In this document: positions 3,595 through 26,951 of the stretch, in pieces
Position numbering within the stretch: the stretch's first letter is position 1
How the letters are laid out: every line of letters starts with the position of its first letter
DNA from: Candidatus Saccharimonadota bacterium
GTDB lineage: Bacteria > Patescibacteriota > Gracilibacteria > BD1-5 > UBA6164
Direction: 5' to 3'
NCBI GenBank assembly: GCA_004563595.2
Contig: CP042461.1
Coordinates: forward strand, 1,311,104 to 1,343,103
Length of the DNA stretch: 32,000 nucleotides
The notes under the pieces: generated by a model
Database searches by the model: none
What the model saw: the letters and a program-made list of their open reading frames with translations, nothing else
Told to the model about the DNA's origin: nothing
Made by a program: the position numbers and the translations under genes

Positions 3595-3672
3595 ATTTTC
3601 AAATTAAAGTTGAATTTTTAGACTTTAATCATATATTAGATGCACAAATTTTACAAAATAAATACGAAAAAT

Positions 3673-4866
3673 ATGAAGTTTACAAAAATATTTTTGATAC
3701 TCTTAATGCTAAGTCTATCACTCGCAAGTTGTACAAACAAAGAATGAAATACAATTACTAAAGACAAAAGTCAAACGGGGACACAAGCTATTTTAGATGA
3801 TAATAAAACAAAGATTATGGATAACTACCAAACAAAAAAACTCGAAGATGGAGATATTGTTGCTGTTATGAAAACAACAAATGGTACTATACAAATAAAA
3901 CTATTCACTGAGGATGTTCCAAAAACAACTCTGAACTTTATGTGACTTGCTCAACAAGGATACTATGATGGGATTATTTTTCATAGAGTTATAAAAGGAT
4001 TTATGATCCAAGGAGGTGATCCAGACGGAACAGGACAAGGTTGAAAGAGTATTTATGGAGCAAAGTTTGATGATGAATTTTCTGATAAACTCAGTAACAT
4101 AACTGGTTCAATTTCCATGGCAAACTCTGGACCAAATACAAATGGAAGCCAATTCTTTATTAATCAAGCTGATAATACAAATCTAGATTTTAATAAAGGT
4201 GATACAAGATCAAAACACTCTGTTTTTGGACAAGTTGTTGAAGGAATGGATAACGTAGATAAAATAGCAAAAGTACAAACGGCTGAACAAGATAGACCAG
4301 TAAAAGAAGTAAAAATTATATCGCTTGTAATCAAACAATATAAGAACGGTACCCTAAAAGATTATAGCTTTGATCTTGAAGCGGAAAAAGAAAAAGTAGA
4401 AACTGAAATGAAAAAAGCTGCTGAAGCAAAGAAAGAGGCTGATAAAAATAAAGCAGTAGAAGCATGAAATAAAATCGCTGTTCACTATACACTTACTCTT
4501 GAGAATGGAGACAAAGTAGATAGTAGTATAGACAGATGAGACGCTTTTGAATTTACTGTTGGAGCTTGAATGACAATCAAATGATTTGATGATGGTGTAA
4601 TCTGAATGAAAATCGGAGATAAAAAGACTCTTACACTTGATCCAAAAGATGCGTATGGTGAAGCTGAAATATCTCTCCCTAAAGCACAATTTAAATCATT
4701 TGAAGATGCTGGTATTAAGCTAGAAAAAGGAGCGAAACTTCCAACTCAAATGTGAGAAATCAATGTACTTGAAGTAAGTGATGATACTGTAACAATTGAA
4801 AACAACCATGACTTAGCATGAAAGACTCTTATATTTGATGTTGAAATGATTGAATTTAAGGATTAA
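3673..4866 (+). CDS. Lipoprotein with fused cyclophilin-type and FKBP/SlyD-type peptidyl-prolyl isomerase domains
   Basis: Signal peptide and lipobox [20 protein letters not shown]. Cyclophilin part: [21 protein letters not shown](TGA=G)KSIYG...[16 protein letters not shown]...[15 protein letters not shown]-rich linker follows, then the FKBP part: [16 protein letters not shown]...[29 protein letters not shown]...[14 protein letters not shown]. No in-frame TAA/TAG until 4864-4866. Confidence 0.9.
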
Positions 4867-6012: not shown

Positions 6013-6045
6013 AAAAAAAGGCAGCTTTAAAACTGCCTTTTTTTA
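6013..6045. terminator. Bidirectional hairpin terminator between convergent genes
   Basis: AAAGGCAG (6017-6024) pairs with CTGCCTTT (6033-6040), flanked by an A-run and a T-run. It overlaps the stop of the minus-strand transposase gene. Confidence 0.7.
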
Positions 6046-6561
6046 TTTCCCATACTCTAACTCATCCAAACTCAACTCCTTATTATCCAAGTACTTCTTT
6101 GGACCAGTCTTTAAAAGTCTATGAATAGATGTATACTTATAATCTTTAATATCCTCAACGAGCTTATACTTAAGTGGATTATAATTCACAAAGCTCATAC
6201 ATTTATGTAAGTATTCTTCTGAATCAATACGAGTGCTTTTAAATCTCCCTTTAAAAACAGGCTGTTTTAGCTCTGAGGGGTATTTCTTCCTATAAGAGGT
6301 TGCATATGCTCATTGAAGTCTTTTCATGAATTCTGAGAGCCTATGTCATGTTTTGATATTTTTTACTATAAGATGAAAATGGTTTGGTAAAAATGAATAT
6401 GAAACGAGCTTTATATCAGAATAATCTTTGAGATATCGAAGAAGGAGTTCATAAAACTTATCAAATTCTTGATCGTCGTGAAAGAGTGGCTCAGTTGAGA
6501 GTCACTTGTTATAGATATGGTAATAACTATTTTCTAGAAATTCTAGTCTGGAATTTCACAT
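6043..6561 (-). CDS. IS200/IS605-family Y1 (HUH) transposase-like protein, RAYT type (REP-associated tyrosine transposase)
   Basis: 172 aa: MGNSRLEFLENSYYHIYNKG...VSYSFLPNHFHLIVK (HUH motif)...FKGRFKSTRIDSEEYLHKCMSFVNYNPLKYKLV (catalytic-Tyr region). Single gene with no tnpB. No inverted repeats seen in its immediate flanks. Confidence 0.8.
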
Positions 6562-6650
6562 AAACTTTTTCTTATATATTAATATAAGTATTCTACATTA
6601 TATAGATTTAAAAGTCAAATATGTGGACCGGTCTCAAATTATAATCAACA

Positions 6651-6676
6651 AAAAACCTTACTTTACGTAAGGCATT
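6651..6676 (-). terminator. Rho-independent terminator of the LRR gene
   Basis: The minus-strand RNA reads CCTTAC-GTAAA-GTAAGG followed by TTTTTT. It overlaps the stop codon. Confidence 0.6.
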
Positions 6677-7218
6677 GCATGAGTAGAAAGATATACTTTA
6701 TTAAACTCTGTCATTTTATCGAGTAATTCTTGACTGACGTCATTTCATTCAACATTCAAGTATTGAAGCTTATTTAACTTTGTAAGTCATTTAATATCTT
6801 CTTCGTCTAGATTATTATAAGACACATCAAGTGTTTTGAGTTTTTCTAACCCTGAGAATCATTCTAAGTTTGTGAGCTTATTATTACTCACATTTATGTG
6901 TCTAATATTAGCTGGAAGCTTTAAGTCTGAGCCAAACCTTAAGTTATTATTACCCAGATCTATTCTTCAGAGTTTATTATATCCCGATATATCAAGTAAT
7001 TCTATCTCATTATTTCATAGATAAATATTATTAACTTCTGTACCTGTTAAATAGAGGTTTAAATTGATAAAACCTTTTATTTCTTTCCCTACTAAGTTTA
7101 TACTTCTATCTGGTGTTTCATAACTTGCTAAAAGGCTTTTATTTGATAATTCAAATGCTGTTTTTCAACATGAAGCAAGTAGAAGAATCGAAACTATAGC
7201 TATAAGTACTTTTTTCAT
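6658..7218 (-). CDS. Leucine-rich-repeat (internalin-like) lipoprotein
   Basis: Lipobox MKKVLIAIVSILLLASC, then tandem LRRs of about 22 aa (LxxLxLxxNxL): IELLDISGYNKLGRIDLGNNNL, IRHINVSNNKLTNLEGFSGLEKLKTLDVSYNNL, LNKLQYLNVEGNDV. No in-frame TAA/TAG. Confidence 0.8.
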
Positions 7219-7323: not shown

Positions 7324-8658
7324 TTAATAACTTTTTGATCATAAGTCTAGCTCGTCTTCCATATTAATATGAAGGTCCTCTGATCATGTAATTCATAGAA
7401 TTGTATAATCTATTCATGACTTTACAAGATTTAATGTAATTACGGTACTTGAAGTTGTTCCAGCAATAACTATTTTATAGTCCTCTCCTCTTGTGGAATT
7501 TGACAGTGTTCTATTTGTCTGTAGTAGTGCTGACATATTAAACTCTAATACATCACCACTCATGACTCATACTACTCTATTTGATGAACTTTCACTATTA
7601 TAAATAGAATAAACAACATCGGCATCTCAACTTGATCATAGCGTTGATAAGCGAAGTTTTTCAAGCTCTATAGTAGGAGAATTATTTCAATTTTCAATAG
7701 TATTATTCCCAAACATAGCTCTGATATTCAACTCTGGAATGTTACTTGAAAGATTTTGCTCTACCTTTACTTCTAATACACCGGGAACAATAGAAAAAAG
7801 TTCTCATGGTTCAGTAACAGTATACATAGCTATATCATTTCCTGATGAGATTCCTTTTACATCATCAAATCAAACTTTACTTACATAGATATCCTTGATA
7901 GTTTTCCCTGCTTTTTCCCTCCCTATTGGTGCTGTTTTTATCTTAAGGCGTGCTTGTCTAATATTTTGAGTGATTATAAAATCATTAAGATTATCAAAGG
8001 TAATTTTTGCTTGGGTAGAACTAATAATATCTAGCTTTGATGATCATACTGAATCTATTACACTTCATTCAAGATATAACGTAGCTGTTTCGATCGAACT
8101 CTTTATATCTGTTAGGTCTTCTGGCCCCGAAATATAAAAGATAACTTTCCCTACGTCAGACGCTTCGTATAACGAGCTAAAGCTTTGTTTATATATAAAT
8201 ACTTCCTCTCAAGCTAAAAGAGTTTTCTCTTCTTCATTATAACTATCTGAGAATCCTGGATACACTGTCATTTCTTTCTCTTCTATTATTTTTTCGTCTT
8301 CAGTGATTTCATTATCTTTTATGATTATTGCTTGCTCTGATTTTAAAGCAGCTAATGTATATGAAGTTTTTAGAGTTAAATAATTGAGTATTAATTTTAA
8401 TTTTTTTGATCTCACATCAGTTCTATATTTTAATTTTTTTTCAAGAGAGGTCAGTTTGTTTGTAAGAAGATTCAAAAAGATTTCATTTTCTTTCTTTTTT
8501 TCTAGAAGACTATCAATAGCTTTGATGTATTTACTTCAATTTGTAATAATTGAAAGTCTTTCTGCTGATTCAGAAATATCATTTTCTAGGTTTGCATGTA
8601 CTCAACTTTGAGAGAATACAAATAGAAAAGATAGTAACAATGTAATAATTTTTTTCAT
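7324..8658 (-). CDS. Secreted protein (444 aa) whose C-terminal domain is homologous to the C-terminus of the adjacent S-layer-like protein
   Basis: Signal peptide MKKIITLLLSFLFVFSQSGVHA, a coiled-coil-like K/E/L-rich N-terminal part (contains track ORF 8209-8475), then a beta-rich part. The C-terminus is ...YKIVIAGTTSSTVITLNLVKSGIDYTILGITGSEDLHINMEDELDLGSKSY*. No in-frame TAA/TAG. Confidence 0.75.
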
Positions 8659-8718
8659 GATCATAATATTAAAAAATTAAATATAATTCTATTATATACA
8701 ATCCTAAATTTTACACAA

Positions 8719-8750
8719 CAAAAAACCCACTCTTTCGAGTGGGTTTTTTG
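8719..8750 (-). terminator. Strong hairpin terminator after the S-layer-like gene
   Basis: ACCCACTC (8725-8732), loop TTTC, GAGTGGGT (8737-8744), flanked by an A-run and a T-run so it can work in both directions. Two weaker hairpins lie at about 8751-8800. Confidence 0.75.
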
Positions 8751-8804
8751 TACTTACAAAAGTAAGTTTTTTTAACTAATCGTATAGATTAATTACGATT
8801 GAGA

Positions 8805-11800
8805 CTAGTAAGATCTAGTACCCATATCTAATTCATCAGACATATTGTTAGTTAATGAAGTAGCACCAGTATTGTCAGCAACACTGTATGTAACCCCAGT
8901 TTCTAATAATTGTAGAGATGAAGTATCACCATCTGCAGTACCAGTAATAGTGATTTTGAATGTTTCACTAGAACCAGCTGAGATTGTTTGATTTGTATCA
9001 GTCATACCAGCAAGAGTAAATGTAACTATATCAGGACTAGTAGTAATTACTCATGTGATAGTATCACTTGAGTCATCAGTATTAGATATAGTATATACTT
9101 CAGCACCTGCGATAGAAGTACCAAGAGTAGAGAACACTAATACGTCAACTAATGTGTTAGCAGTAGAGTTATCATTATCTTTAGTATTGTCTCCAGCAGT
9201 AGAAGTTAATTTTAATTCTGGTGTAGTACTAGAATTAAGAGAAGCTTCTACAGAAGCTGTAAGAAGAATAGGAACTATAGCAGTATCTTTAGAAGAACTA
9301 GAGATAGCTAATGTTTCATTCGTAGCATCTTTACCAGAATCAACACCTTGAACATCATTTAATGCAATATTAGTTATGTTAATACCTGTAACTGTAGCAC
9401 CATTTTTTTGGTAACCAATAGTTTCAGTATTTAATACTAATTTAAGTTCAGCAGTAGACTCTTCAACTATTAAATTATCTAAATCATCAAAAGTAATAGT
9501 AGTAGCAGTAACATCACCGATATTATTCGTATCAATTAATGTATCATCTAAGTATAGAGATGCATTAACTATTTTTTCTGTTAAATCAGTATCAACAGTG
9601 AAAACAACAGTTTCAACATCCATAGATTCATTAATAGATTGAACATCAACTGAGAATACAGTTTCAGAAGAACCAGCTAAAATAGTTTTAGCATCTTCAT
9701 TGTCTTCATTATTAGCATCAGCAGTTATAGTAAGTTCACCGAATCCAGTAATAGAGATTTGTCTATTAGAAAGGATATTAGTAGTAACAGTAACATCATC
9801 TTTATCATCATCTTCAACACTTAAAGAAGTAAGAGTTGTTTCGATAAATCTTTGATCTACTGCATCTTGTCCATCAACGATAGAAAGAACAACAATAAAT
9901 GTTTCAGTAGCGTTAGATTCTATTTTAACGTCTGTAAAGTCGTTAAATGTAACAGTACCATCAGAAGCAATTTTAGAACCAGATTCTTGGTCTAATAAAT
10001 TAGCCTCAGAAACAGAACCTACGTATAATCTTGCTTCAGAGATAGTTTGACTTGGTAAGTTAGTTGAACTAAATATAAATACTTCAGCTTGAGCAGTAAC
10101 AGCAACAACATTAGCAGTTGTAGCAACATTTGAACCAGCTAAATCACCAGTAGCATTAGCAGCAGAAGGGCTAGTGAAAGCAGTTCCTGCAACAGCAGCA
10201 GTTAAAACAAGATCAGCACCAGCGCTTGTTAATGTTATACCAGCTGTAGCGTAAGCAGCAGCATTAGCAGTAACAAAATTAGCTGCAGTAGTAGTAAGAT
10301 CAGTAGCAAAAGTAGAAGTTAATGGACTACCTGTAACACCAGCTGTAGTAATAGCTGCAGTACCTGAAGTACCAGTAATAGTAAGAGTATCTACTTGAGC
10401 AACTGCAGTAACAGCAACAACAGCAGCAGCAGCAGTTGGGTTAATTTTAGCAATTACTTCATCAACAGTTACGTAAGAAGATTCTTCAGCTTCAACTTCC
10501 CATTGTAAAGCAACAATATCTTTTGCTCCTCTAACAACAGTAATATCAGATAAATTAACTTCAGAAGCAGTAGCTCCAGATTCAGAACCATCAATAGAGT
10601 TAAAAGAAACACTAGAAGGAGTGATATCAGTAACTTCTTTATCATCTTCAGTTTCTTCAACATAGAAAGCACCTGCAGTTAATATATTAGTATTACCAGT
10701 AACAAAAGAGATTTCAAATGAAGCACTATCAAATAAATTGATATCTTCACCAGTATCAGCTCTAATAGACCAATTAGTTGATCCTTGAGGAATAATAACA
10801 TCTATACTATCTTCAGAATAGATATCAGAACTTGTACCTCCTAATTGTAATTCATACGAAGAACCTGTTTCTTCATTATATAATTCAACATCATCAAATA
10901 ATTTAGCAAGAGTTAATGCTTCAGTACCATTTAATGTATCATCATTAGCAGTACCTCCACCAGCACCATCATCAACGAATGCATTACCAGCAGTTAAAGT
11001 AACTTTAATACCAAACTCTTGTAATTCTAAGTTTTGTCCAGCAACATTTGTTAACTTGAACCCACCTATAGTAACATTATTTTTATCTTCTCTAATTTCA
11101 TCGAAATCAGGTTCAATTTCAACAATAGTTAATTCACCAGCTTCAATAGTAACTGTTTTAGGAGTACTATTAAAAGCAGTAATAACAACTGATGCACCGT
11201 AACCAAATTTAGTTGAAACAGCAGTAACGTCTAATTTTTCATCAATTGTGAATGAAATAACGTCAGCAGCACCTTCGATGATATCAGCCTTTACAGTGAA
11301 ATCTTCGTTTTTATCTTCTTGAATAGTTATACCATCACCTAAGTCAAATGTTAGGAAATCGTCTTTCATAGAAGCAGTAGATGCAACTAAATCATTACCG
11401 TAGTAAAGTTTAAAGTTAGCTAAATCATCTTCAGCATCACTAGAACCTTCAAAAGTAATAGTTTTTAAAATAACATCTTCATTGTTATCTCCATCAATTT
11501 CAAATTCAAAGATATCAACATTTTCTTCTCCTAAAGTAGGGTTAGAAACACTTGACCCTTGTGTAAATGTTAATGTTGGAGCATCAACAGAACCAATTCT
11601 TAGTGTATTTGCAACTAAGTTATCTAGTCCTTCAATGTTACTGTTTGCAACTAAGCTAGTTAGTTCTAAAGCAAACTCATCTTGAGCAGCAGCAGCAACA
11701 TTTCCTAAATCTACAACAATAGATAAAGTTCTTGTTTCACCAGCTTTAACTACAACACCTCCATCAGAAAGGTTTAGTTGAGCTTCAGTATCATTTTCTT

Positions 11801-12719
11801 GGTTATCATTTTTTTCATTAGAAGCTCTCCCTGTATCAGTAAATACAGCTAGAGATTCAAGAGTATTGTTATCAGATAACCCTCTTCTTTTAATTGTAAT
11901 TTGAGTAATAGTAACATCTTCAGAACCAGCAGTGAAATCAAAGCTAGCAGCTGGAAGACCGTTAACTGCACCAGGAACAGTAGCAGCAACTGGAGTTTCA
12001 GGAGAAAGAGAAACAGTTAATACATTGTCACCTGAGATAACTGTAGTAGTATCATCAGTAGTGTCAGTAGTAGTATCAGTATCATCTTCTTCATCATCAG
12101 TTAAGTCACCTAGAAGGTCACCTAAAAGATCATCATCATCATCAGTAGTTGTTTCCATTGAATCAGCTCCAACTTTGAATACCCAACCTCTAGTAGCAGA
12201 AGCATCGTAATCAGTAAAAGTAGAAACAATATCTTCATTAACAGCAAAAGCAACAACTTGTTCTTGCCATGAGCTCGTTTTAGAAGAATCAAAAGAGTAT
12301 CCTAAACCAGCAGCAGAAACCATCATACCTAAAGCTTCCGCTTTTGAGATATTTCTTTCTGGATTGAAAGTAGCATTAGAAGTAGAAACAATTCCAGCTT
12401 CAGCTAACGGTTCAATAGAGTAAACAGCCCAAGTATTAGGACTAGTAGCAGTAACATCAGTAAAAACACCTGTTACAGTAGTAGATTTTGCTAAACCAGC
12501 AACACCTCTAGCAACAGCAGCTATTTCTTGTCTTAATACATTTTGATCAAGATTATAAGCAGCAGTATCAGAACTGTGGTTATTAATAATTCCTTCAGCA
12601 GCTAAAGTATTAGCAGCATCAGTTTGAGCACCACTAGCAGCAGATACACCTGTAGAGAAAAGTCCCGATACAAGAGCAACTAAAGCAACACTAGCAGTAG
12701 CTTTTTTAAATAAATTCAT
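8805..12719 (-). CDS. S-layer-like cell-surface protein (1304 aa): signal peptide, three SLH repeats, acidic linker, multiple Ig-like/beta-sandwich modules and a conserved C-terminal domain
   Basis: Track ORF 9051-12719 ends at a TGA. Read as Gly, it joins in frame to ORF 8805-9005 with a true TAG stop at 8805-8807. Signal peptide: MNLFKKATASVALVALVSGLFSTGVSA. SLH signature: FTDV...NTWAVYSIEPLAEAGIVS...FNPERNISKAEALGMMVSAAGL. Linker: DDDDDLLGDLLGDLTDDEEDDTDTTTD. Repeated modules of about 100 aa (...DVTITQITIKRRG..., ...ILKTITFEGSS...FTVKADI...). The protein is acidic, rich in T/S/A/D/V and has no Cys. Confidence 0.9.
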
Positions 12720-12752: not shown

Positions 12753-13841
12753 TTAAACACGTTTAAATATATGAGATAATTGTTTTTCAAAAGAATGAGT
12801 TGTAAATCTTTTAGCAGTACTTTTAGATGCTAAAGAAAGATTACTTCTTAATTCAGAGTTTGTTAAAATATCATAAGCTTTATCTATAAATTCATTATCT
12901 GAATCTACAAGATATCAATTCACTCAATTTTGAACTAACTCACGAGCTCAAGATTTATTCAAACATACCACAGGGATTCAAAGAGACATAGATTCAATAA
13001 GGACAAGCCCAAAAGAATCTATCAAGGATGGAAAGAGAAAAATATCTGACTTTCATAAAGTATCAATAATAGTATTATTATCTATAGTTCATAAGAAGGA
13101 AACATTTATATCATTTTCATACTTGTCACAATAATATGGTAACTCCTCTCATGCTCATCAAACTATCAAATGAAGACCTGGGATCTTCTTCTTTAAGTTT
13201 TCATAAGTATGAAAGATAAGTTGTATATTTTTTCACTCTCCCCATCTTCCATAAGTAAATATGGTATTTGAAGGTGAGTGAGTAATAATGTCTTTTTGTA
13301 TTTGTTTCTCAAAGTCTCTATCCAATACAGGAGAAAGAATTTCAGAAGGTATATTATAAATATCTTTTATAACAGACTGTAAGTACTGACTATTGGAAAT
13401 AACAAGATCAATTCTCTTTATTACTCTTTTCTCAAAAAAACGTTTTAACTTTAAAAAATTGTTTGTATTTTCACTGTAATACCATGGATAATGATGGTTC
13501 CACCAGATAAGCTTCGCTCTCGAAAAAAATAAAGTTTTTGATAACACTCATACAAAATGCATAGGTGAGTTTCAAATAATTACATAATCACTTTTTCTTA
13601 TTTTAAATGCTATATATAGGAGGCTAAAAAATTTTAACACTCCAAAACTATAGAAACTTTTCATTCAGAAATGTACAGCTTCTTCTGAAAAGACATTCTT
13701 ATCGTAAGAGAAACTATAAAATGTAACGTCATTATTCTTTTTATGTAAAAAGCTTGATAAGAATATCATCATCTTTACAGCTCATCATTTCTTATTTACA
13801 TAAGGATGAAGAACAGAGATCGTTTTATGTGTTGGTATCAT
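12753..13841 (-). CDS. Family 4 (GT-B, GT4) glycosyltransferase
   Basis: 362 aa: MIPTHKTISVLHPYVNKKGGAVKMM... N-terminal half. C-terminal half: ...TIFTYGRWGEGKN...HLIVGGAGEE...FLFPSLIDSFGLVLIESMSLGIPVVCLNKSGARELVQNGVNGYLV (E-x7-E region). Contains track ORF 13233-13547. Its stop is only 33 nt upstream of the S-layer gene ATG. Confidence 0.85.
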
Positions 13842-14175: not shown

Positions 14176-15342
14176 TTACCCATTTGAGATAGTATCTGCT
14201 AGATTCATGATAGGCTGCATAATAGCAACAGCGATAAATCAAACAACTACAGCTAAGAAAACTATAATAAATGGCTCAAGTAACTTATTCAATATATTTA
14301 TGGTATTATCTACCTGATCATCATAGAAGTCTGCTACTTTAATAATTGTTTGATCAAGCTTGGCTGTTTGTTCTCAAACTTGTATCATTTGTACCATCAT
14401 TTCTGGAAAAAGCTTATCTCCGTCAAGCGATTCCCACATTTTGATTCACTGCTGAATATCTTCAGAAACCAATAGTAATCTTTGTTTATATACTTCATTT
14501 CAAACAGCACTAGATGTAATTTTTAAACACTCTACCACGGATACTCATGATCAAAGTAGACCAGAAAATACTCTAGAAAACTTTGAGAGTATTAATTTTT
14601 GTCCCATTGGTCAAAAAACTGGTATTTTTAAAATAAACCCATCATAGAGGTATTTCCCATTTGGTGTCTTTTTCCATAAAGAAATGAGTATGTAACCTAC
14701 AATGAGTATTCAAATCATAATGAACCAATAATCTCTAAACGCATCTGAAATAGCGATAAGAGCTCTTGTTGACGGAGGAAGTGCTGATTTATCATCAAAT
14801 ATTTCTAATAATTTTGGCACTACCGCAACCATCATAACAGAAACAACCCCTATCACAACAACCATTATGAAAAATGGATACATCATGGCTGACTTAATTT
14901 TTCATGAAATTGATGACACTTTTTCTATCTGTAAAGCAAGATCGTTTAAGACAGTATTTAGTTGACCGGTCTTCTCTCAAGCGCTTATTATTCATACTTC
15001 TGCTTCGGTAAAACTAGATGGATATAGTTCTAAACAATCAGAAAAGCTCTTTCATCATCTCAATTCTTCACAAAACCTTCACATAATTTTTTTAAATACT
15101 GGGTTTTTTTCTTGTTTCTCTAATACAAGGATTGATTTTAGAATACTCATTCATGCATTTGTCATGGTAGACAAAAGACGAAAGAAAATAACTTTTTCTT
15201 TCACTTTTACACTTTGAAGAGAAACAATAAAATTATTTAATTGATCCATCAGAGAGGTATTATTTCTTTCTTTTTTTATATTATGGACAACATTGTCATT
15301 CTTTTTATTTTCATCATCATTTAAGATAATTAAATCTGACAT
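14176..15342 (-). CDS. pilC: Type IV pilus / type II secretion platform protein (PilC/GspF/ComGB family)
   Basis: 388 aa with two GspF repeats: ...VIFFRLLSTMTNAGMSILKSILVLEKQ...FSDCLELYPSSFTEAEVGIISAGEKTGQLNTVLNDLA... and ...FSRVFSGLLGSGVSVVECLKITSSAVGNEVY...LFPEMMVQMIQVGEQTAKLDQTI... TM segments are present. No in-frame TAA/TAG. Confidence 0.9.
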
Positions 15343-15364
15343 AATAAGGAATTAAAAATTAAAA

Positions 15365-16631
15365 ATTATCATTTTTGAGATTTTGCTACACGATATACTT
15401 CTTCTAATGAGGTCTCTCATCTAAGAGCCTTCATAACTCCGTCTTGTTCAAGAGAAACCATCCCATCCTTTATTGCTTGAGTATTAATATTCATTGCTGA
15501 TTCTCACCTCAATATCATTTGTTTTATTCACTTTGTAATCTCTAATGCTTCATAAAGTCATACTCTTCATTTATAACCAGTTCCCTCACATTCACTACAT
15601 CAGACCGGTTTATAAAAAACAGGGTTCTTTAATATATCTCACACCCTCTCGGTTAGTTCCTTTTTATCTGTGAGTGCAATAGCATTTTTTACATTATTAA
15701 GTGCATCATTTCATATTTCCTGTAAGCTTATTTTTTCTTTACAATTTTTACATAATTTTTTTATCAATCTTTGGGCAATGATAACATTAATAGATGCAGG
15801 GAGTAAAAATGGCTGAACTCACATGTTTAATAATCTTGTGAGTGTTTCTGACGCACTGTTGGTATGAATAGTAGATAATACGAGATGTCATGTTAATGAA
15901 GCTTCAATAGCGATATCTACCGTTTCTTTATCCCTCATTTCTCATACCATTATTATATCAGGATCTTGCCTGAGGGCAGTTCTGAGTCAATTTGCAAAAC
16001 TATATCATATAGCAGGCTTTATCTGACTCTGATTAATACCATCAACTTGATTTTCCACAGGATCTTCCAGCGTCATAATATTTACTCAAATTTTATTTAA
16101 AAGCGTAAGGGCTGAATATAAAGTAGTCGACTTCCCTGATCAAGTAGGTCATGAAGTTAATATTACCCCATTTGGTAAACTCAATGCTTTTTTTACTAAT
16201 CTCAAATTTTTTCCCTCAATTCATAACTCAGTTAATTTTGGTATTTTTTTACTTTTATCTACAATTCTCATTACAATTTTTTCACCATGCACTGTTGGAA
16301 GTGTAGAAACTCTCAAATCTAGAGATTTTCACTCTATAACTCTACTAATTCTTCCATCTTGAGGAATACGGGATTCATCAATTTTTAGCTCAGATAAAAT
16401 CTTAAATCTCGCAACGATTCACTGATGCAAAAACGATTGGTATTCTAAAATTTCTCTGAGCTCACCATCAAGCCTATAACGAAGTCTTACATAAGAGGAA
16501 AGTGGTTCTATATGAATATCAGAAGATTCTCATAAAACAGCCGCAAAAATAATATTGTCACAAATGAGTTGTATGTTATCTCATTTATAAACAAGGTCTT
16601 TCAGGCTATCTAAGACTTCTTTATAATTCAT
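15365..16631 (-). CDS. pilB: GspE/PilB/ComGA-family pilus assembly ATPase, interrupted by a +1 frameshift in an A6 tract (T-run 15660-15665 on the plus strand)
   Basis: From ATG 16631 the frame encodes the Walker A motif SGPTGSGKSTT (16122-16154), the Asp box, Walker B DPDIIMVGEMRD, the His box LTGHLVLSTIHTN and the first CKNC. After GAT AAA AAA it runs into a TAA at 15609-15611 (...DKKGTNREGVRYIKEPCFL*). The conserved remainder is in the +1 frame and ends at the TAA at 15365-15367: KELTERV...VGCSECEGTGYKGRVGLYEALEIT...MVSLEQDGVMKALRGETSLEEVYRV. As written there are two overlapping ORFs, 15609-16631 and 15365-15685. Confidence 0.85.
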
Positions 16632-16637
16632 GTTTTT

Positions 16638-17885
16638 TTATTTGATTATAATTTTTTCTTCCAGAGTATCTAATATTACATTATATTTCACTGCTTTTTT
16701 ATATAGTTTATCAATATTATCTTTCTTTTTTAATCATTGAGCGATCTGCTTTATATCTGAAGAAATTTCTTTTAAATAAGCATTTATTTTATTAACGTTT
16801 ATCTTATCAATTCCTTTTATTTTCTTATTTTTCATAAGAATATTTACATTCTTCTCAAGGGCTGCATATTGACTCAACATATTAACTACAAACTCCTCTA
16901 CTTTATAATATGGTAATCATTTTATATAAAATTTTAACTCTACATCAATTTTTATTTTCTCTCATCATTGTGTTGATTTTATGAAGTCTGGAAATGTTTT
17001 TTTAGAAGATTCCCCCGTATATCATGATGAATTTATGTATTCTCTCATTTGGAAACTATCAAGATCAATCATTTGGTTTTCATAGATATTATAATCTGCG
17101 TCTTTTCATGATCATAATAAAGTTATTTTTCTCCCTCTCTTTATTAAAAAATTATCTCTATATACAGATAATAGATTATCTTTTACTTCTATGTTTCATG
17201 CTTTCTCAATAAAATGAAGGAAATTAATTATATTTTCTTTTGAACCATTAAGATTGAGTCATAAAGGAATGTAAAATATATTTGTTTCTAATCATTTATT
17301 GTTCTTCCCATCATTAGAAAAATCTTCAAGTAATACTATATCTTTAATTCAAATAGGGTCTGTATATTTCAAAGAAAAGGATTCTAAAATAGTTTCCACG
17401 TAATTTATAAATTTAAAGTCTGTTAATGCTTCAGCTGTAAGGTCATTTGTTACTTCAGAGTAAGAAGGAAGGAGTTGAACAATTTCTTCTTCTTTTTCTT
17501 GCATTTTCAATTTGTTTTCATCATTATTAATCTCTTCTGATTTCTTTTCTAAAAAAACCATGAAACCTTCATTTGTTGTATTTTTTAAATGCTGTGCAAA
17601 AAAATCTTCTTTAATGTCTTTTAGTAATTCTACATCATATGAACTATATCATGTTCCTGTGGTAACAGCCTTTCCTAAAGCAAGGAAGTCTGTATATGAT
17701 ATCCCTCCTTTTGTAATAGCTTGGATATCTTGAGCTAAGATAGCTGTATCTTTCTTTTTCTGCTCAATCTCAATCACTCCTGGATATACAACTCCGTAAG
17801 AAAAGTATATTAAACCAATAAGTAAAAATGCGTAAAAAACAGCGTGTACAAGTATTCATTGAGACTCTCTCTTTGTTCTTTTCAT
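16638..17885 (-). CDS. Bitopic membrane protein (415 aa) in the pilus operon; possible PilO/PilN-type assembly component, assigned by position only
   Basis: MKRTKRESQG, then TM segment ILVHAVFYAFLLIGLIYFSYGVV, then a large extracytoplasmic domain. Contains track ORF 17349-17561. Its stop lies 6 nt before the pilB ATG. No in-frame TAA/TAG. No family recognised from sequence. Confidence 0.7.
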
Positions 17886-17894
17886 AAAAAAATT

Positions 17895-18797
17895 TTATAA
17901 TGATAAATTATTGGAATTATACTGTAACTTTATATCAAATTGTGTTTTTTTTGTAAATCATGTTGATTCTCAAAATATATTTTCTGATGAAAATATTTTT
18001 TGCCTATCTATAAGAGTAAAATCATTTCAATTTCTTTCAATATAATTTAAAAAACTATTTGCTATAGATATAGATGTTCATCAAACATTGCTATTATCAG
18101 TTCCGTCAAATCATTTAATTCCTCAGTTTTCATATCAAATTGAATATGCCTCACATTTAAGAGTGATAACTTCTTTTTTATTTATTTCGATATCAGAACA
18201 TTGTATTTTTTCAATTTCAATTGGATCATATGAATTCTTTAAGGCATCAAATTTTTCTAATATTTCCAACACTCTTAACTTATTATTACTCTTGTTTTCT
18301 AAGAAGATAATATGTTTTGATTTTGTGAAATTCTCAACTTTGTATAATCAACCCAGTACTTCTAAAACCTTTTTCACTTGATTGTCTTTTAATTTTTTTA
18401 ATTGGTCAGTATAATCTGTATATAGAAATGATACAGAAGAACAATATGAAGCTCCTGCGTGTAAATCTCATAATACTACACTACAGACAGGATCTAATGT
18501 AGTTAATTCTCTTATTTCTTCATTAGTTTGTATATAAAGATACCCGTAGAGGAGTCCTGCTATAAAAAGCCATATAAAAAATACTGTTTGAAGAAAGCTT
18601 CAAAAGATTGAAACATAGTATATTCCATCTTTATCCTTTTGTTTATTCATCTCATCAATCTCTTGCTTTAAGTCAGTGTTTGACTCAAATTCTTCGAATA
18701 TATTTGAAGAATTATCGGATGTTGTTTCTGCTTTCTTTTTTCTTTTTGTAAATAGCATAATTATTATTTTTAAATATAATCTCAATAATAATATCAT
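17895..18797 (-). CDS. Bitopic membrane protein (300 aa, or 287 aa from ATG 18758), first gene of the pilus operon; possible PilM/N-type component, assigned by position only
   Basis: Charged N-terminus KRKKKAETTSD..., TM segment SFLQTVFFIWLFIAGLLYGYLYI, then an extracytoplasmic domain with four Cys. Its stop lies 9 nt before the next ATG. Contains track ORF 18600-18797. A TATAAT-like box sits about 33 nt upstream of ATG 18797. Confidence 0.65.
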
Positions 18798-18842
18798 ATA
18801 TATAAAACAAAAACAAAAAAAGCTGCTTTACTATTATACTTT

Positions 18843-24134: not shown

Positions 24135-26951
24135 TTATTTACTTAAGTATTTTTTTATAGCATCAGCTGTATAACTCTTTTTGAGATTTTTAATCTCATC
24201 AATAGTTCATGCTCATAATAACTCTCATCATGCATCTCATCATTCAAGTCATATGTCTATTATATAATCTGCATTTAATATAACATCCATATTGTGCTCA
24301 ATCACAAGTACACTATTCCCTTTATCAACTAATGAATGAAGAATAGTTAATAACCTATTTACATCTTGAAAATGAAGCCCTGTTGTTGGCTCATCAAGGA
24401 TGTAAAAAGTTTTTGTAGTGGATCTCTTTGATAACTCCGTAGCAAGCTTAATCCTCTGTGCTTCTCATCATGACAAGGTAATGCTTGACTGTCAAAGTTT
24501 AATATATCAAAGTCATACTTTATCTAATATTTGAATTACTTTTATAATTTTTGGGTGATTCGAGAAAAAATCAAGTGATTCTTCTATCGTCATCTCTAAA
24601 ATATCAGATATCGTTTTTCATTTATATTTAATTTGAAGAGTTTCCCTATTATACCTTTTCCCTCAGCACTCCTCACACTCAACATAGACGGGTGGAAGAA
24701 AATGCATTTCAATTTTTTTCACACCATCTCACTCACAATGTTCACACCTTCATTGTTTTGTATTAAAACTAAATCTCCCCGGTCCATATCATCTTATTTG
24801 AGCCTCACTCGTTTGAGCAAAAACTTCTCTTATAGGTGTAAACACTCCTGTATAAGTTGCGGGGTTACTACGTGGGGTTTTTCATATAGGAGATTGATCT
24901 ATAACCACTGTCTTATCAAGATGTTCCAGTCATTTTATTTCTTTTACTTGTCCAACTTGTCTTTTTGCTCTGTTTAAGTTATTCAGTAAATAATTTGCCA
25001 ATATATCATTTACAAGACTAGATTTCCCACTTCATGAAACCCCAGTTACAACAACAAAATTTGAAAAAGGAATAGAAACATCGATATTTTTTAAATTATT
25101 TTGTGCTGCTCAAATTATTTCGAGATACTTGTCTACCTTTCTTTCTTTTCTATCTATTATCATTCCATTGTTTCACTTTAAATAGGCTCAGGTGATTGAA
25201 TCCTTATTTTTTACTAACTCTTCTAATGTTCATTCTGCAATTATATTTCAACCATGAATTCAAGCTCATGGTCATATATCAATAATATAATCTGATTCCC
25301 TCATTATGTCTTCATCATGCTCTACAATAATAAGAGTGTTTCATATATCTCTCAATTTTTTTAAGTTCTCTATCAACATATTATTATCTCTTGGATGGAG
25401 TCAAATAGATGGTTCGTCTAAGACATATATGATTCATTCTAGTTTTGTTCCTATTTGTGTTGCTAACCTAATTCTTTGAGCTTCTCAACCTGAAAGAGTC
25501 CCTGCTTTTCTTGAAATAGTCATATAGTGTAATCCAACTCAAGTCAAAAATTCTAATCTTTCAATCGCATTTTTAAGAACTTTTTTCACTATTTTTCACT
25601 CAGAGCTAGAGAGGTTTAAATTATTCAAAAAAATCAATGATTTATCAATCGACAGCTCTGATAACTCTCAAATGTTTTGCCCCTTTAAAAATACAGATAA
25701 ACTTTCTCTATTCAATCTATATCCATCACATATTTGACACTGCATATCTACAACATACTCATCATAATTTCATTTGTCTGCTCAACTATCGAAATATCTC
25801 CTAGTAAGGGTGTTTATAACTCACTCAAATTTTGAATTATAAGTCTTTTTTTCTCAATATTCATTTTCGAAATTTACTTTATATTGTATATCTCATGTTC
25901 AATAGAGAATAATATTTTTTTCTTTTTGGCTTAAAAGAGAATATGTAATATTGAGGTTAATTTTTTTCTTTTTTGCAATTTCTTCTAATAAGGCAAAGAA
26001 ATAATTTCACCCAAACCCGGGAGCTTTTACTGCTCATTCGAGAAGCGTAAGATTAAAGTTTATTATTTTTTCTTCTAAAAATATCTTCTTTACTCCGAGT
26101 CAATGACATTCTCCACACGCTCATGCATGAGAATTAAATGAAAAGCTTGAGATGCTCAGCTCTGCAGGAATGTGTCCACAGCCAGAACATACAAATATAT
26201 TAGAAAATCCTTTTTTTTCTTTTCAGATGATATCAATTCCTATTTGTCATTTTCCTACTTTATAAGCAAGTTCCAGACTATCTTTTAGCCTTTTTGTATC
26301 AGATGAGTCATCATCCGTAAAATCCCTTATAACTAACCTGTCTAGAATAATATCTACTGAATCAATATTATCTATTTCAACATCATCATTGATAGTGTAA
26401 GTTTTATCAGCAATAGCGAACCTAATAAATCAAAGATTTAGTAATTCTTTTTTAATTGACGCAAGGTCTTTGAATGGTCACTTTATTCATGCTGTAATGA
26501 TAAACTTATCTCATGATTTAAATGAAGATAAAAAACCAATAATGTCTAAAATCGAATCTTTCTTTACTATTGTATCACAATTTACACACTTTCTTTCTCA
26601 TACATTTAAAAAGAGAAGTTTATAATAGTCATAAATTTCTGTGATCGTTCATACGGTTGATCTTGGATTTCTACTGGTTGTTTTTTGATCAATTGAAATC
26701 GTTGGTGAGAGTCATTTGATTTCATCAACCTCTGCTTCTTCTTTCATTCCACCGATGAACATACGTGCATAACTTGAAAGACTTTCTAAATACTTCTGTT
26801 GTCATACAGAATAAATAGTATTAAAAGCCAAAGAAGATTTTCAAGATCCTGATAGTCATGTAATAACTGTCATTTTATTCTTTGGAATTTTTACATCAAT
26901 ATTTTTCAAATTGTGTGTACGTGCCCCATATACCTCTAAAAACTCTGACAT
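24135..26951 (-). CDS. uvrA: Excinuclease ABC subunit A
   Basis: 938 aa: [47 protein letters not shown], zinc modules CxxC (CVNC, CSGCGH, CGEC), and second ABC signature [15 protein letters not shown]...[11 protein letters not shown]. The whole frame was checked and has no in-frame TAA/TAG. Confidence 0.95.

Follow-up and report, generated by a model that had tools for sequence, protein, structure and literature searches.

A 310-residue C-terminal module shared by a putative S-layer protein and its neighbour in a UGA-recoded bacterium of the candidate phyla radiation

The DNA analysed here (the window) is a 32,000-nucleotide stretch of contig CP042461.1 (assembly GCA_004563595.2, positions 1,311,104 to 1,343,103) from a bacterium of the Gracilibacteria lineage in the candidate phyla radiation (CPR). 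Two neighbouring minus-strand genes of the window, A and B, encode secreted proteins with closely similar C-terminal endings. The region shared by the two proteins is a C-terminal module of ~310 residues, not a short tail, and A and B are best explained as paralogues with a lineage-specific module in common. The ending itself would be the last β-strand of the third domain of this module and thus part of a fold, not a detachable tag. The explanation as a whole, in which paralogous proteins with a structural last strand assemble into a surface coat from module to module, is given a probability of roughly 0.6. The features of the two genes are as follows.

8805..12719, minus strand: gene A, encoding a 1304-residue, putatively SLH-anchored S-layer-type protein (code 25 translation)
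12333..12464, minus strand: SLH domain of A, residues 86–129 (Pfam PF00395, E = 2.6e-7, score 30.9 bits, gathering cut-off 20.8)
9051..9053, minus strand: sole in-frame UGA of A, codon 1223 (Gly), which aligns with UGA/Gly in B and with Gly in homologues
8808..9734, minus strand: C-terminal module of A, residues 996–1304, predicted to form three β-sandwich domains (positions 2–311 of the module hidden Markov model (HMM), E = 2.4e-106)
8808..8849, minus strand: tail of A, NNMSDELDMGTRSY-COOH, predicted terminal β-strand of the last domain (sequence and module model)
7324..8664, minus strand: gene B, encoding a 446-residue secreted protein with 15 UGA-Gly codons (code 25 translation)
7327..8271, minus strand: C-terminal module of B, residues 132–446, paralogous to A 996–1304 (module HMM positions 2–311, E = 3.4e-134)
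7327..7368, minus strand: tail of B, INMEDELDLGSKSY-COOH, whose conserved Gly (7339–7341) is encoded by UGA (sequence)

Residues 995–1304 of A align with residues 135–450 of B over 321 columns with 33% identity (blastp, code 25, E = 2e-52). The B residues are numbered here from the open reading frame start at 8676 and correspond to residues 131–446 counted from the ATG at 8664. An earlier note on this DNA had aligned the two proteins over ~65 residues and taken the rest of them to be unrelated, but the unrelated parts comprise only A 1–994 and B 1–130. The endings that it quoted are both exact: A ends in LTNNMSDELDMGTRSY, followed by the stop codon at 8805–8807, and B ends in HINMEDELDLGSKSY, followed by the stop codon at 7324–7326. 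The two genes are also adjacent and their products secreted, as it had stated, with signal-peptide-like N-termini on both proteins (that of A seen by eye) and an SLH domain in A.

The window uses genetic code 25, in which UGA is read as Gly, as is evident from codon counts and orthologue alignment. This assignment is made because, in 10 of 12 counted genes (B included), UGA stands at 46–75% of the Gly positions, because the ‘W’ residues of B orthologues in databases, where UGA is translated as Trp, align with Gly in 66 of 169 cases (39%, over a Gly background of 2.8%), and because the conserved tail Gly of B is itself encoded by UGA. A UvrA-like gene has UGA in 57 of its 89 Gly-position codons, and the gene at 24135–26951 (minus strand) exemplifies the ordinary genes, in which UGA is the majority Gly codon (56–75%). 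With TAA and TAG as the sole stops, the window resolves into long, dense genes. With code 11, the region looks almost gene-free, and open reading frame calling shatters B and truncates A, the large minus-strand frame ending at 9051 without the quoted tail. A looked truncated because of its single in-frame UGA (9051–9053), which also accounts for the right-hand coordinate, 9053, given in the earlier note. Both quoted endings lie downstream of in-frame UGA codons. No tRNA genes were found in the window. Code 25 is so far known only from Gracilibacteria and Absconditabacteria (PMC11452946).

Protein A consists of a signal peptide, the SLH domain, an acidic Asp/Thr-rich linker, a β-rich array and the C-terminal module, and has a pI of 4.1. 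Pfam detects only one SLH repeat in A, and SLH is also flagged in the A orthologue of a related genome (L002). The linker that follows the SLH region (residues ~188–226, ~12040–12160, minus strand) is an extremely acidic Asp/Thr/Glu stretch, TTTDDDDDLLGDLLGDLTDDEEDDTDTTTDTTDDTTT, and its LLGDLLGDL core is kept in orthologues. An Ala/Thr-rich low-complexity insertion (residues ~790–900, ~10020–10350, minus strand) is absent in orthologues, which show 5–37% identity there; Ala/Thr-rich inserts of a similar kind interrupt the module itself in the family members P0048, P0063 and P0067. Protein B consists of a signal peptide, a Lys/Leu/Glu-rich region of ~100 residues that looks helical by eye, and the module, and it has no anchor of its own. 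The N-terminus of B matches other secreted open reading frames of the window at the signal-peptide level only. A second ATG of B, at 8658, is the start used in its database copy (P0010).

AlphaFold2 was run on the module of an A orthologue (P0009, 56% identical to A) using a 16-sequence alignment. The model is all-β and consists of three β-sandwich domains, with a mean predicted local distance difference test (pLDDT) score of 84.7 and a predicted template-modelling (pTM) score of 0.80. The tail of P0009 (LDLGTRS) forms a strand in the most confident block of the model (pLDDT ~95). When the last domain was folded alone, the scores were lower (pLDDT 70, pTM 0.66), and the tail was still a strand (~68); this lower confidence suggests that the last domain may be stabilised by the rest of the module. 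Foldseek comparison with the PDB returned only generic tandem Ig-like sandwiches for the whole module (TM-scores of 0.15–0.3) and gave no significant match (best E = 0.3) when queried with the last domain by itself, and a sequence-profile search of PDB sequences found no solved relative. The possibility that the ending is just the last strand of a generic Ig-like repeat found throughout A stands in one half: the ending is the predicted last strand of an Ig-like sandwich, but neither the domain nor the motif is repeated through A. The best internal similarity of A to the last domain is 27% identity (A 1109–1198) without the motif, and the last-domain profile and the module HMM detected no repeat through A, with one match per protein, at the C-terminus.

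The module defines a protein family. A word-indexed search with the module of A found 8 proteins, a profile built from those found 15, and 88 hits came from searching 1.84 billion cluster representatives exhaustively with HMMER and a profile of the last domain only. Ten of the 88 are unrelated giant Ig-repeat proteins, in which many stretches match the profile core (positions 5–102) and none ever matches the last 14 positions, those with the tail motif. The module is carried by ~75 clusters (at 50% identity), and in each of them the last-domain match ends 0–6 residues from the C-terminus. Further proteins with the tail, which the earlier note had proposed to search for, thus exist and include orthologues. 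In all members of sufficient length for a judgement, the C-terminal module is complete (HMM positions ~2–311), and among these the tail was never seen without the whole module. The main length classes are ~430–470 residues (B-like) and ~1150–1375 residues (A-like, with SLH-type N-termini).

At least four N-terminal architectures precede the module: SLH, B-like, lipobox and one other. Lipobox lipoproteins with the module are P0004, P0053, P0064, P0061 and P0002; a different N-terminal domain is joined to it in P0025, P0044 and P0074; and P0068 is a minimal protein of signal peptide and module. P0074 contains two module copies, neither of which reaches the tail (the internal copy ends at HMM position 289 and the C-terminal copy at 290). 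In P0003 (267 residues), an N-terminal cytosine DNA-methylase motif (PF00145) is fused to the module; rather than a genuine architecture, this fusion probably reflects either a chimeric short contig or an error in gene calling. Genes of the lipoprotein type are found at a separate conserved locus, flanked by def and secY, in L009, L010 and probably L006; those of the third type (L007) and of the minimal type (L011) lie at other sites. The lipoprotein-type genes (L009 8001–9476, L010 2246–3721 and L006 150–1652) stand at the end of a ribosomal-protein operon, lack UGA and exceed the surrounding genes in GC content (0.37 versus 0.25–0.29).

Pfam and NCBIfam contain no model for the shared region or the tail, and no description of the module or motif was found in the literature on the surfaces of Gracilibacteria, Absconditabacteria and Vampirococcus. 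Papers on these organisms report S-layer-domain proteins, pili and giant surface proteins. S-layer-type surface proteins are a known kind of protein, and within them the module represents a previously undescribed domain family specific to the lineage.

The tail motif has the form N-hyd-x-x-x-hyd-x-hyd-G-[ST]-[RK]-x-[YF] at the protein end (hyd, hydrophobic residue); the ending shared by A and B is ELDxGxxSY. The pattern hyd-x-hyd-G-x-x-x-[YF] lies within one residue of the end in 58 of the 85 members, 54 of which (64% of the 85) end exactly on the aromatic residue, and loose internal matches number only 3 in 48,629 residues. Since one sub-clade ends in SID, SIN or TNN, the terminal aromatic, absent in about one-third of members, is common but not universal. 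The information content of the tail (G 3.7, L/I 3.0, L/F 2.7, R/K 2.5 and Y/F 2.2 bits per column) is similar to that of other core strands of the same domain, such as K-D-G-I-x-Y-D-V (G 3.8, Y 4.1). The tail is conserved in orthologues (L002/L003, L004, L005 and L001) and is present on both proteins of every adjacent A–B pair examined. As for its description as an acidic tail with a terminal Tyr, the Tyr/Phe end is common in the family, but B orthologues do not conserve the acidic residues and have KELN, RELS or SDIS there. A Ca-binding (DxDxDG or EF-hand-like) reading of DELDxG was dropped for the same reason. Co-variation of the A and B tails within genomes looked promising with two genomes and disappeared with four; the within-genome tail identity (0.59) is not above the cross-genome identity (0.52), and there is therefore no co-variation signal.

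Codon usage differs sharply between the two genes. Of the Gly codons of A, only 1 of 91 is UGA and 65 are GGT, and in B 15 of 27 are UGA. The gene of a secreted peptidyl-prolyl isomerase in the window is intermediate (28%), and the lipoprotein-type gene of P0064 has no UGA in 492 codons, compared with 31 in the 423 codons of the adjoining secY. UGA-Gly looks like a marker of low-expression codon usage in this genome. Because the third codon positions of A are still AT-biased (GC content 0.10), the codon bias of A argues for translational selection and against a foreign origin. The two genes are separated by a terminator.

8718..8751, minus strand: intrinsic terminator between A and B, consisting of an A-tract, the hairpin CCCACUC-GAAA-GAGUGGG and a U-tract (ΔG −23.1 kcal/mol)

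This element lies 53 nucleotides after the stop codon of A, and none of 200 shuffled sequences was as stable (z = −7.5). The hairpin has a 7-bp GC-rich stem and a GAAA loop and looks bidirectional; a consensus terminator scan missed it. A TATAAT-like box follows the terminator upstream of B. Given the UGA avoidance in A and the strong terminator before B, A would be an abundant coat protein and B a lower-level partner, separately transcribed and probably made at ordinary levels.

These observations can be combined into a model of the cell surface. A probably serves as the abundant S-layer-type coat protein in a CPR bacterium of the Gracilibacteria/Absconditabacteria type that reads UGA as Gly, and its module is at the opposite end of the protein from the SLH anchor. 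The lattice of SLH-anchored S-layer proteins is formed by their non-SLH part. B would most likely join the coat by module-to-module contacts with A, and the lipoprotein and other paralogues in related genomes would join it likewise. The contact between A and B is one that we purely infer: because B has no anchor, it is the simplest way for B to stay on the cell. The module as a whole may plausibly act in assembly or docking, and for the tail a structural or assembly function in an S-layer-type coat is more likely than one as a sorting signal. Three points weigh against this model. The exact aromatic end in 64% of members is more precise than a purely structural strand requires. The fall in the pLDDT of the tail from ~95 to ~68 when domains 1 and 2 are removed indicates that the tail may contact other domains or subunits. 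The high expression of A, moreover, is deduced from codon bias only.

The module could instead form a distal host-binding (adhesin) tip on proteins with different anchors, in a CPR bacterium living as an episymbiont or predator, with the tail closing the fold. Relatives of the organism are epibiotic predators with elaborate surfaces (PMC8080830), the module lies opposite the SLH or lipid anchors, and a type IV pilus cluster and a leucine-rich repeat (LRR) protein are conserved neighbours. The fold matches also include adhesin and biofilm Ig-like domains, but these matches are weak and generic, and the module shows no lectin or known binding-domain signature. The module of A is, moreover, about as conserved as the rest of A, not better, and lacks the hypervariability of a tip. 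We regard a host-binding tip as an unlikely, though reasonable, alternative.

A more specific variant of assembly is that the terminal strand with its free Tyr/Phe carboxylate docks onto other molecules, for instance through edge-strand or donor-strand insertion into a neighbouring module, and co-assembles SLH-bound A, anchorless B and the lipoproteins into one coat. We consider this doubtful. If true, it would amount to a CPR-specific S-layer assembly code, possibly read by a dedicated factor.

The earlier note had proposed a recognition tag, and the corresponding explanation is that the last domain and the terminal motif form a C-terminal sorting or attachment signal that dedicated CPR machinery would recognise and might also cleave, in the manner of the C-terminal domain (CTD) β-sandwich of the type IX secretion system (T9SS) or of a sortase signal. 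The tag proposal is right in that the tail is strictly C-terminal (54 of the 85 members end exactly on Tyr or Phe), conserved in orthologues and found behind several N-terminal architectures at different loci, and in that the internal module copy of P0074 has no tail. The tail is, however, an integral strand of a full module: it never occurs without the entire 310-residue unit, the architectures are few and all belong to β-sandwich surface proteins, and it is no more conserved than other strands. The terminal aromatic is missing in about one-third of members, and A and B already have Sec signals. No recurrent peptidase, transporter or processing enzyme was found across the five genomic contexts examined.

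Comparison with known signals points the same way, and here the earlier view that the tail is hydrophilic, lacks a transmembrane segment and resembles no established sorting signal was borne out, with no match to any Pfam or NCBIfam sorting-signal model. With regard to sortase (LPXTG) signals, both tails are hydrophilic and end the protein, with no transmembrane helix or basic anchor and no NCBIfam match. For PEP-CTERM, GlyGly-CTERM and their relatives, there is no transmembrane segment, and no NCBIfam model reaches E≤1 on either C-terminus. The T9SS CTD models (Por_Secre_tail and relatives) have no Pfam or NCBIfam match, and the portability of that signal is not seen here, members long enough to judge carrying the full three-domain module. 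The β-signal of outer-membrane proteins is likewise a poor fit, as a β-sandwich is predicted by AlphaFold2 and the Foldseek matches are Ig-like sandwiches. Strict terminal position is the sole feature that we count for a sorting role, which is otherwise unsupported, and we judge such a signal improbable.

That the shared tail is a functionless by-product of recent gene conversion or of chance similarity is hardly credible: A and B are adjacent and on the same strand, an arrangement that favours conversion, but a recent event is excluded by the tail codons, which differ at the majority of synonymous sites (56% nucleotide identity), differences that show selection at the protein level, and the overall A–B identity is only 33%, the motif is conserved across the ~75 clusters and tail identity is not higher within than across genomes.

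In the window, the gene order around A and B comprises the type IV pilus ATPase and platform genes, a glycosyltransferase gene, A, B, an LRR lipoprotein gene, a Y1 transposase gene, the secreted cyclophilin-FKBP gene and mfd. L002 and L003 share this order, L005 and L001 share part of it, and A–B adjacency is kept in L002, L003, L004 and L005.

6658..7218, minus strand: LRR lipoprotein (lipobox LLASC) directly downstream of B, without module or tail; position conserved in L002, L003 and L005

The LRR lipoprotein is a possible functional partner of A and B. Directly upstream of A lie a GT4 glycosyltransferase gene (12753–13841) and a type IV pilus-like cluster (14176–18827, minus strand) that encodes a PilC-like platform protein, a PilB-like ATPase and two membrane proteins that matched no family; L001 and L002 have the same arrangement. 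A lipoprotein gene at 3640–4866 (plus strand; lipobox LSLASC) encodes a cyclophilin-type domain fused to an FKBP-type peptidyl-prolyl isomerase and is syntenic with the cluster in L002 and L003; its product may be an extracytoplasmic foldase for surface proteins. The Y1 (IS200/IS605-type) transposase gene downstream of A, B and the LRR gene (window 6043–6597, minus strand; L002 12355–12873; L005 5398–6606) is syntenic although the B proteins of those genomes are only ~50–60% identical, which is unusual for a mobile element, and it may be a domesticated (RAYT-like) copy.

Most UGA-recoded CPR bacteria are epibionts or predators that have not been cultured, and only micrographs have given a view of their envelopes. 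The locus probably reveals the major coat protein of these bacteria and a conserved minor partner, together with a so far undescribed module of 310 residues that links SLH-anchored, lipid-anchored and anchorless surface proteins. The HMM and the motif provide a handle for finding envelope components and a concrete hypothesis for coat assembly. A caution also follows for annotation: in such genomes, the standard code truncates proteins and makes long homologies resemble short ‘tails’.

Among known systems, the T9SS CTD of Bacteroidota resembles the last domain in being a C-terminal Ig-like β-sandwich of ~80–120 residues with conserved terminal strands and no transmembrane helix. The T9SS CTD, however, occurs on many unrelated passengers, whereas the last domain here is always accompanied by two further conserved domains. 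To our knowledge, T9SS machinery is not expected in monoderm CPR bacteria. Many family members end in Tyr or Phe after an alternating hydrophobic strand with Gly, like the β-signal of outer-membrane proteins, but the predicted structure is a soluble β-sandwich and no barrel, the spacing of hyd-x-hyd-G-[ST]-[RK]-x-[YF] does not fit and the aromatic is absent in about one-third of members.

In overall layout, A resembles the SLH-anchored S-layer proteins of monoderm bacteria, such as Sap and EA1 of Bacillus anthracis and SbsB of Geobacillus. Like them, A has a Sec signal, an N-terminal SLH region and a C-terminal β-sandwich array, and it is acidic with a strong codon bias suggesting high expression. 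In contrast to them, A has one SLH repeat (Pfam), shows no sequence or specific fold relation beyond SLH and comes from a UGA=Gly CPR bacterium, and lattice formation is only putative for A. The BSL proteins of B. anthracis share SLH with the main S-layer protein, and the cell wall proteins (CWPs) of Clostridioides difficile share CWB2 with theirs. In those sets, as here, several surface proteins, some encoded beside the main coat gene, share one module and differ in the rest. The BSL and CWP proteins share their cell-wall anchor, whereas in the family described here the anchors differ (SLH, lipobox or none) and the distal C-terminal module is what is shared.

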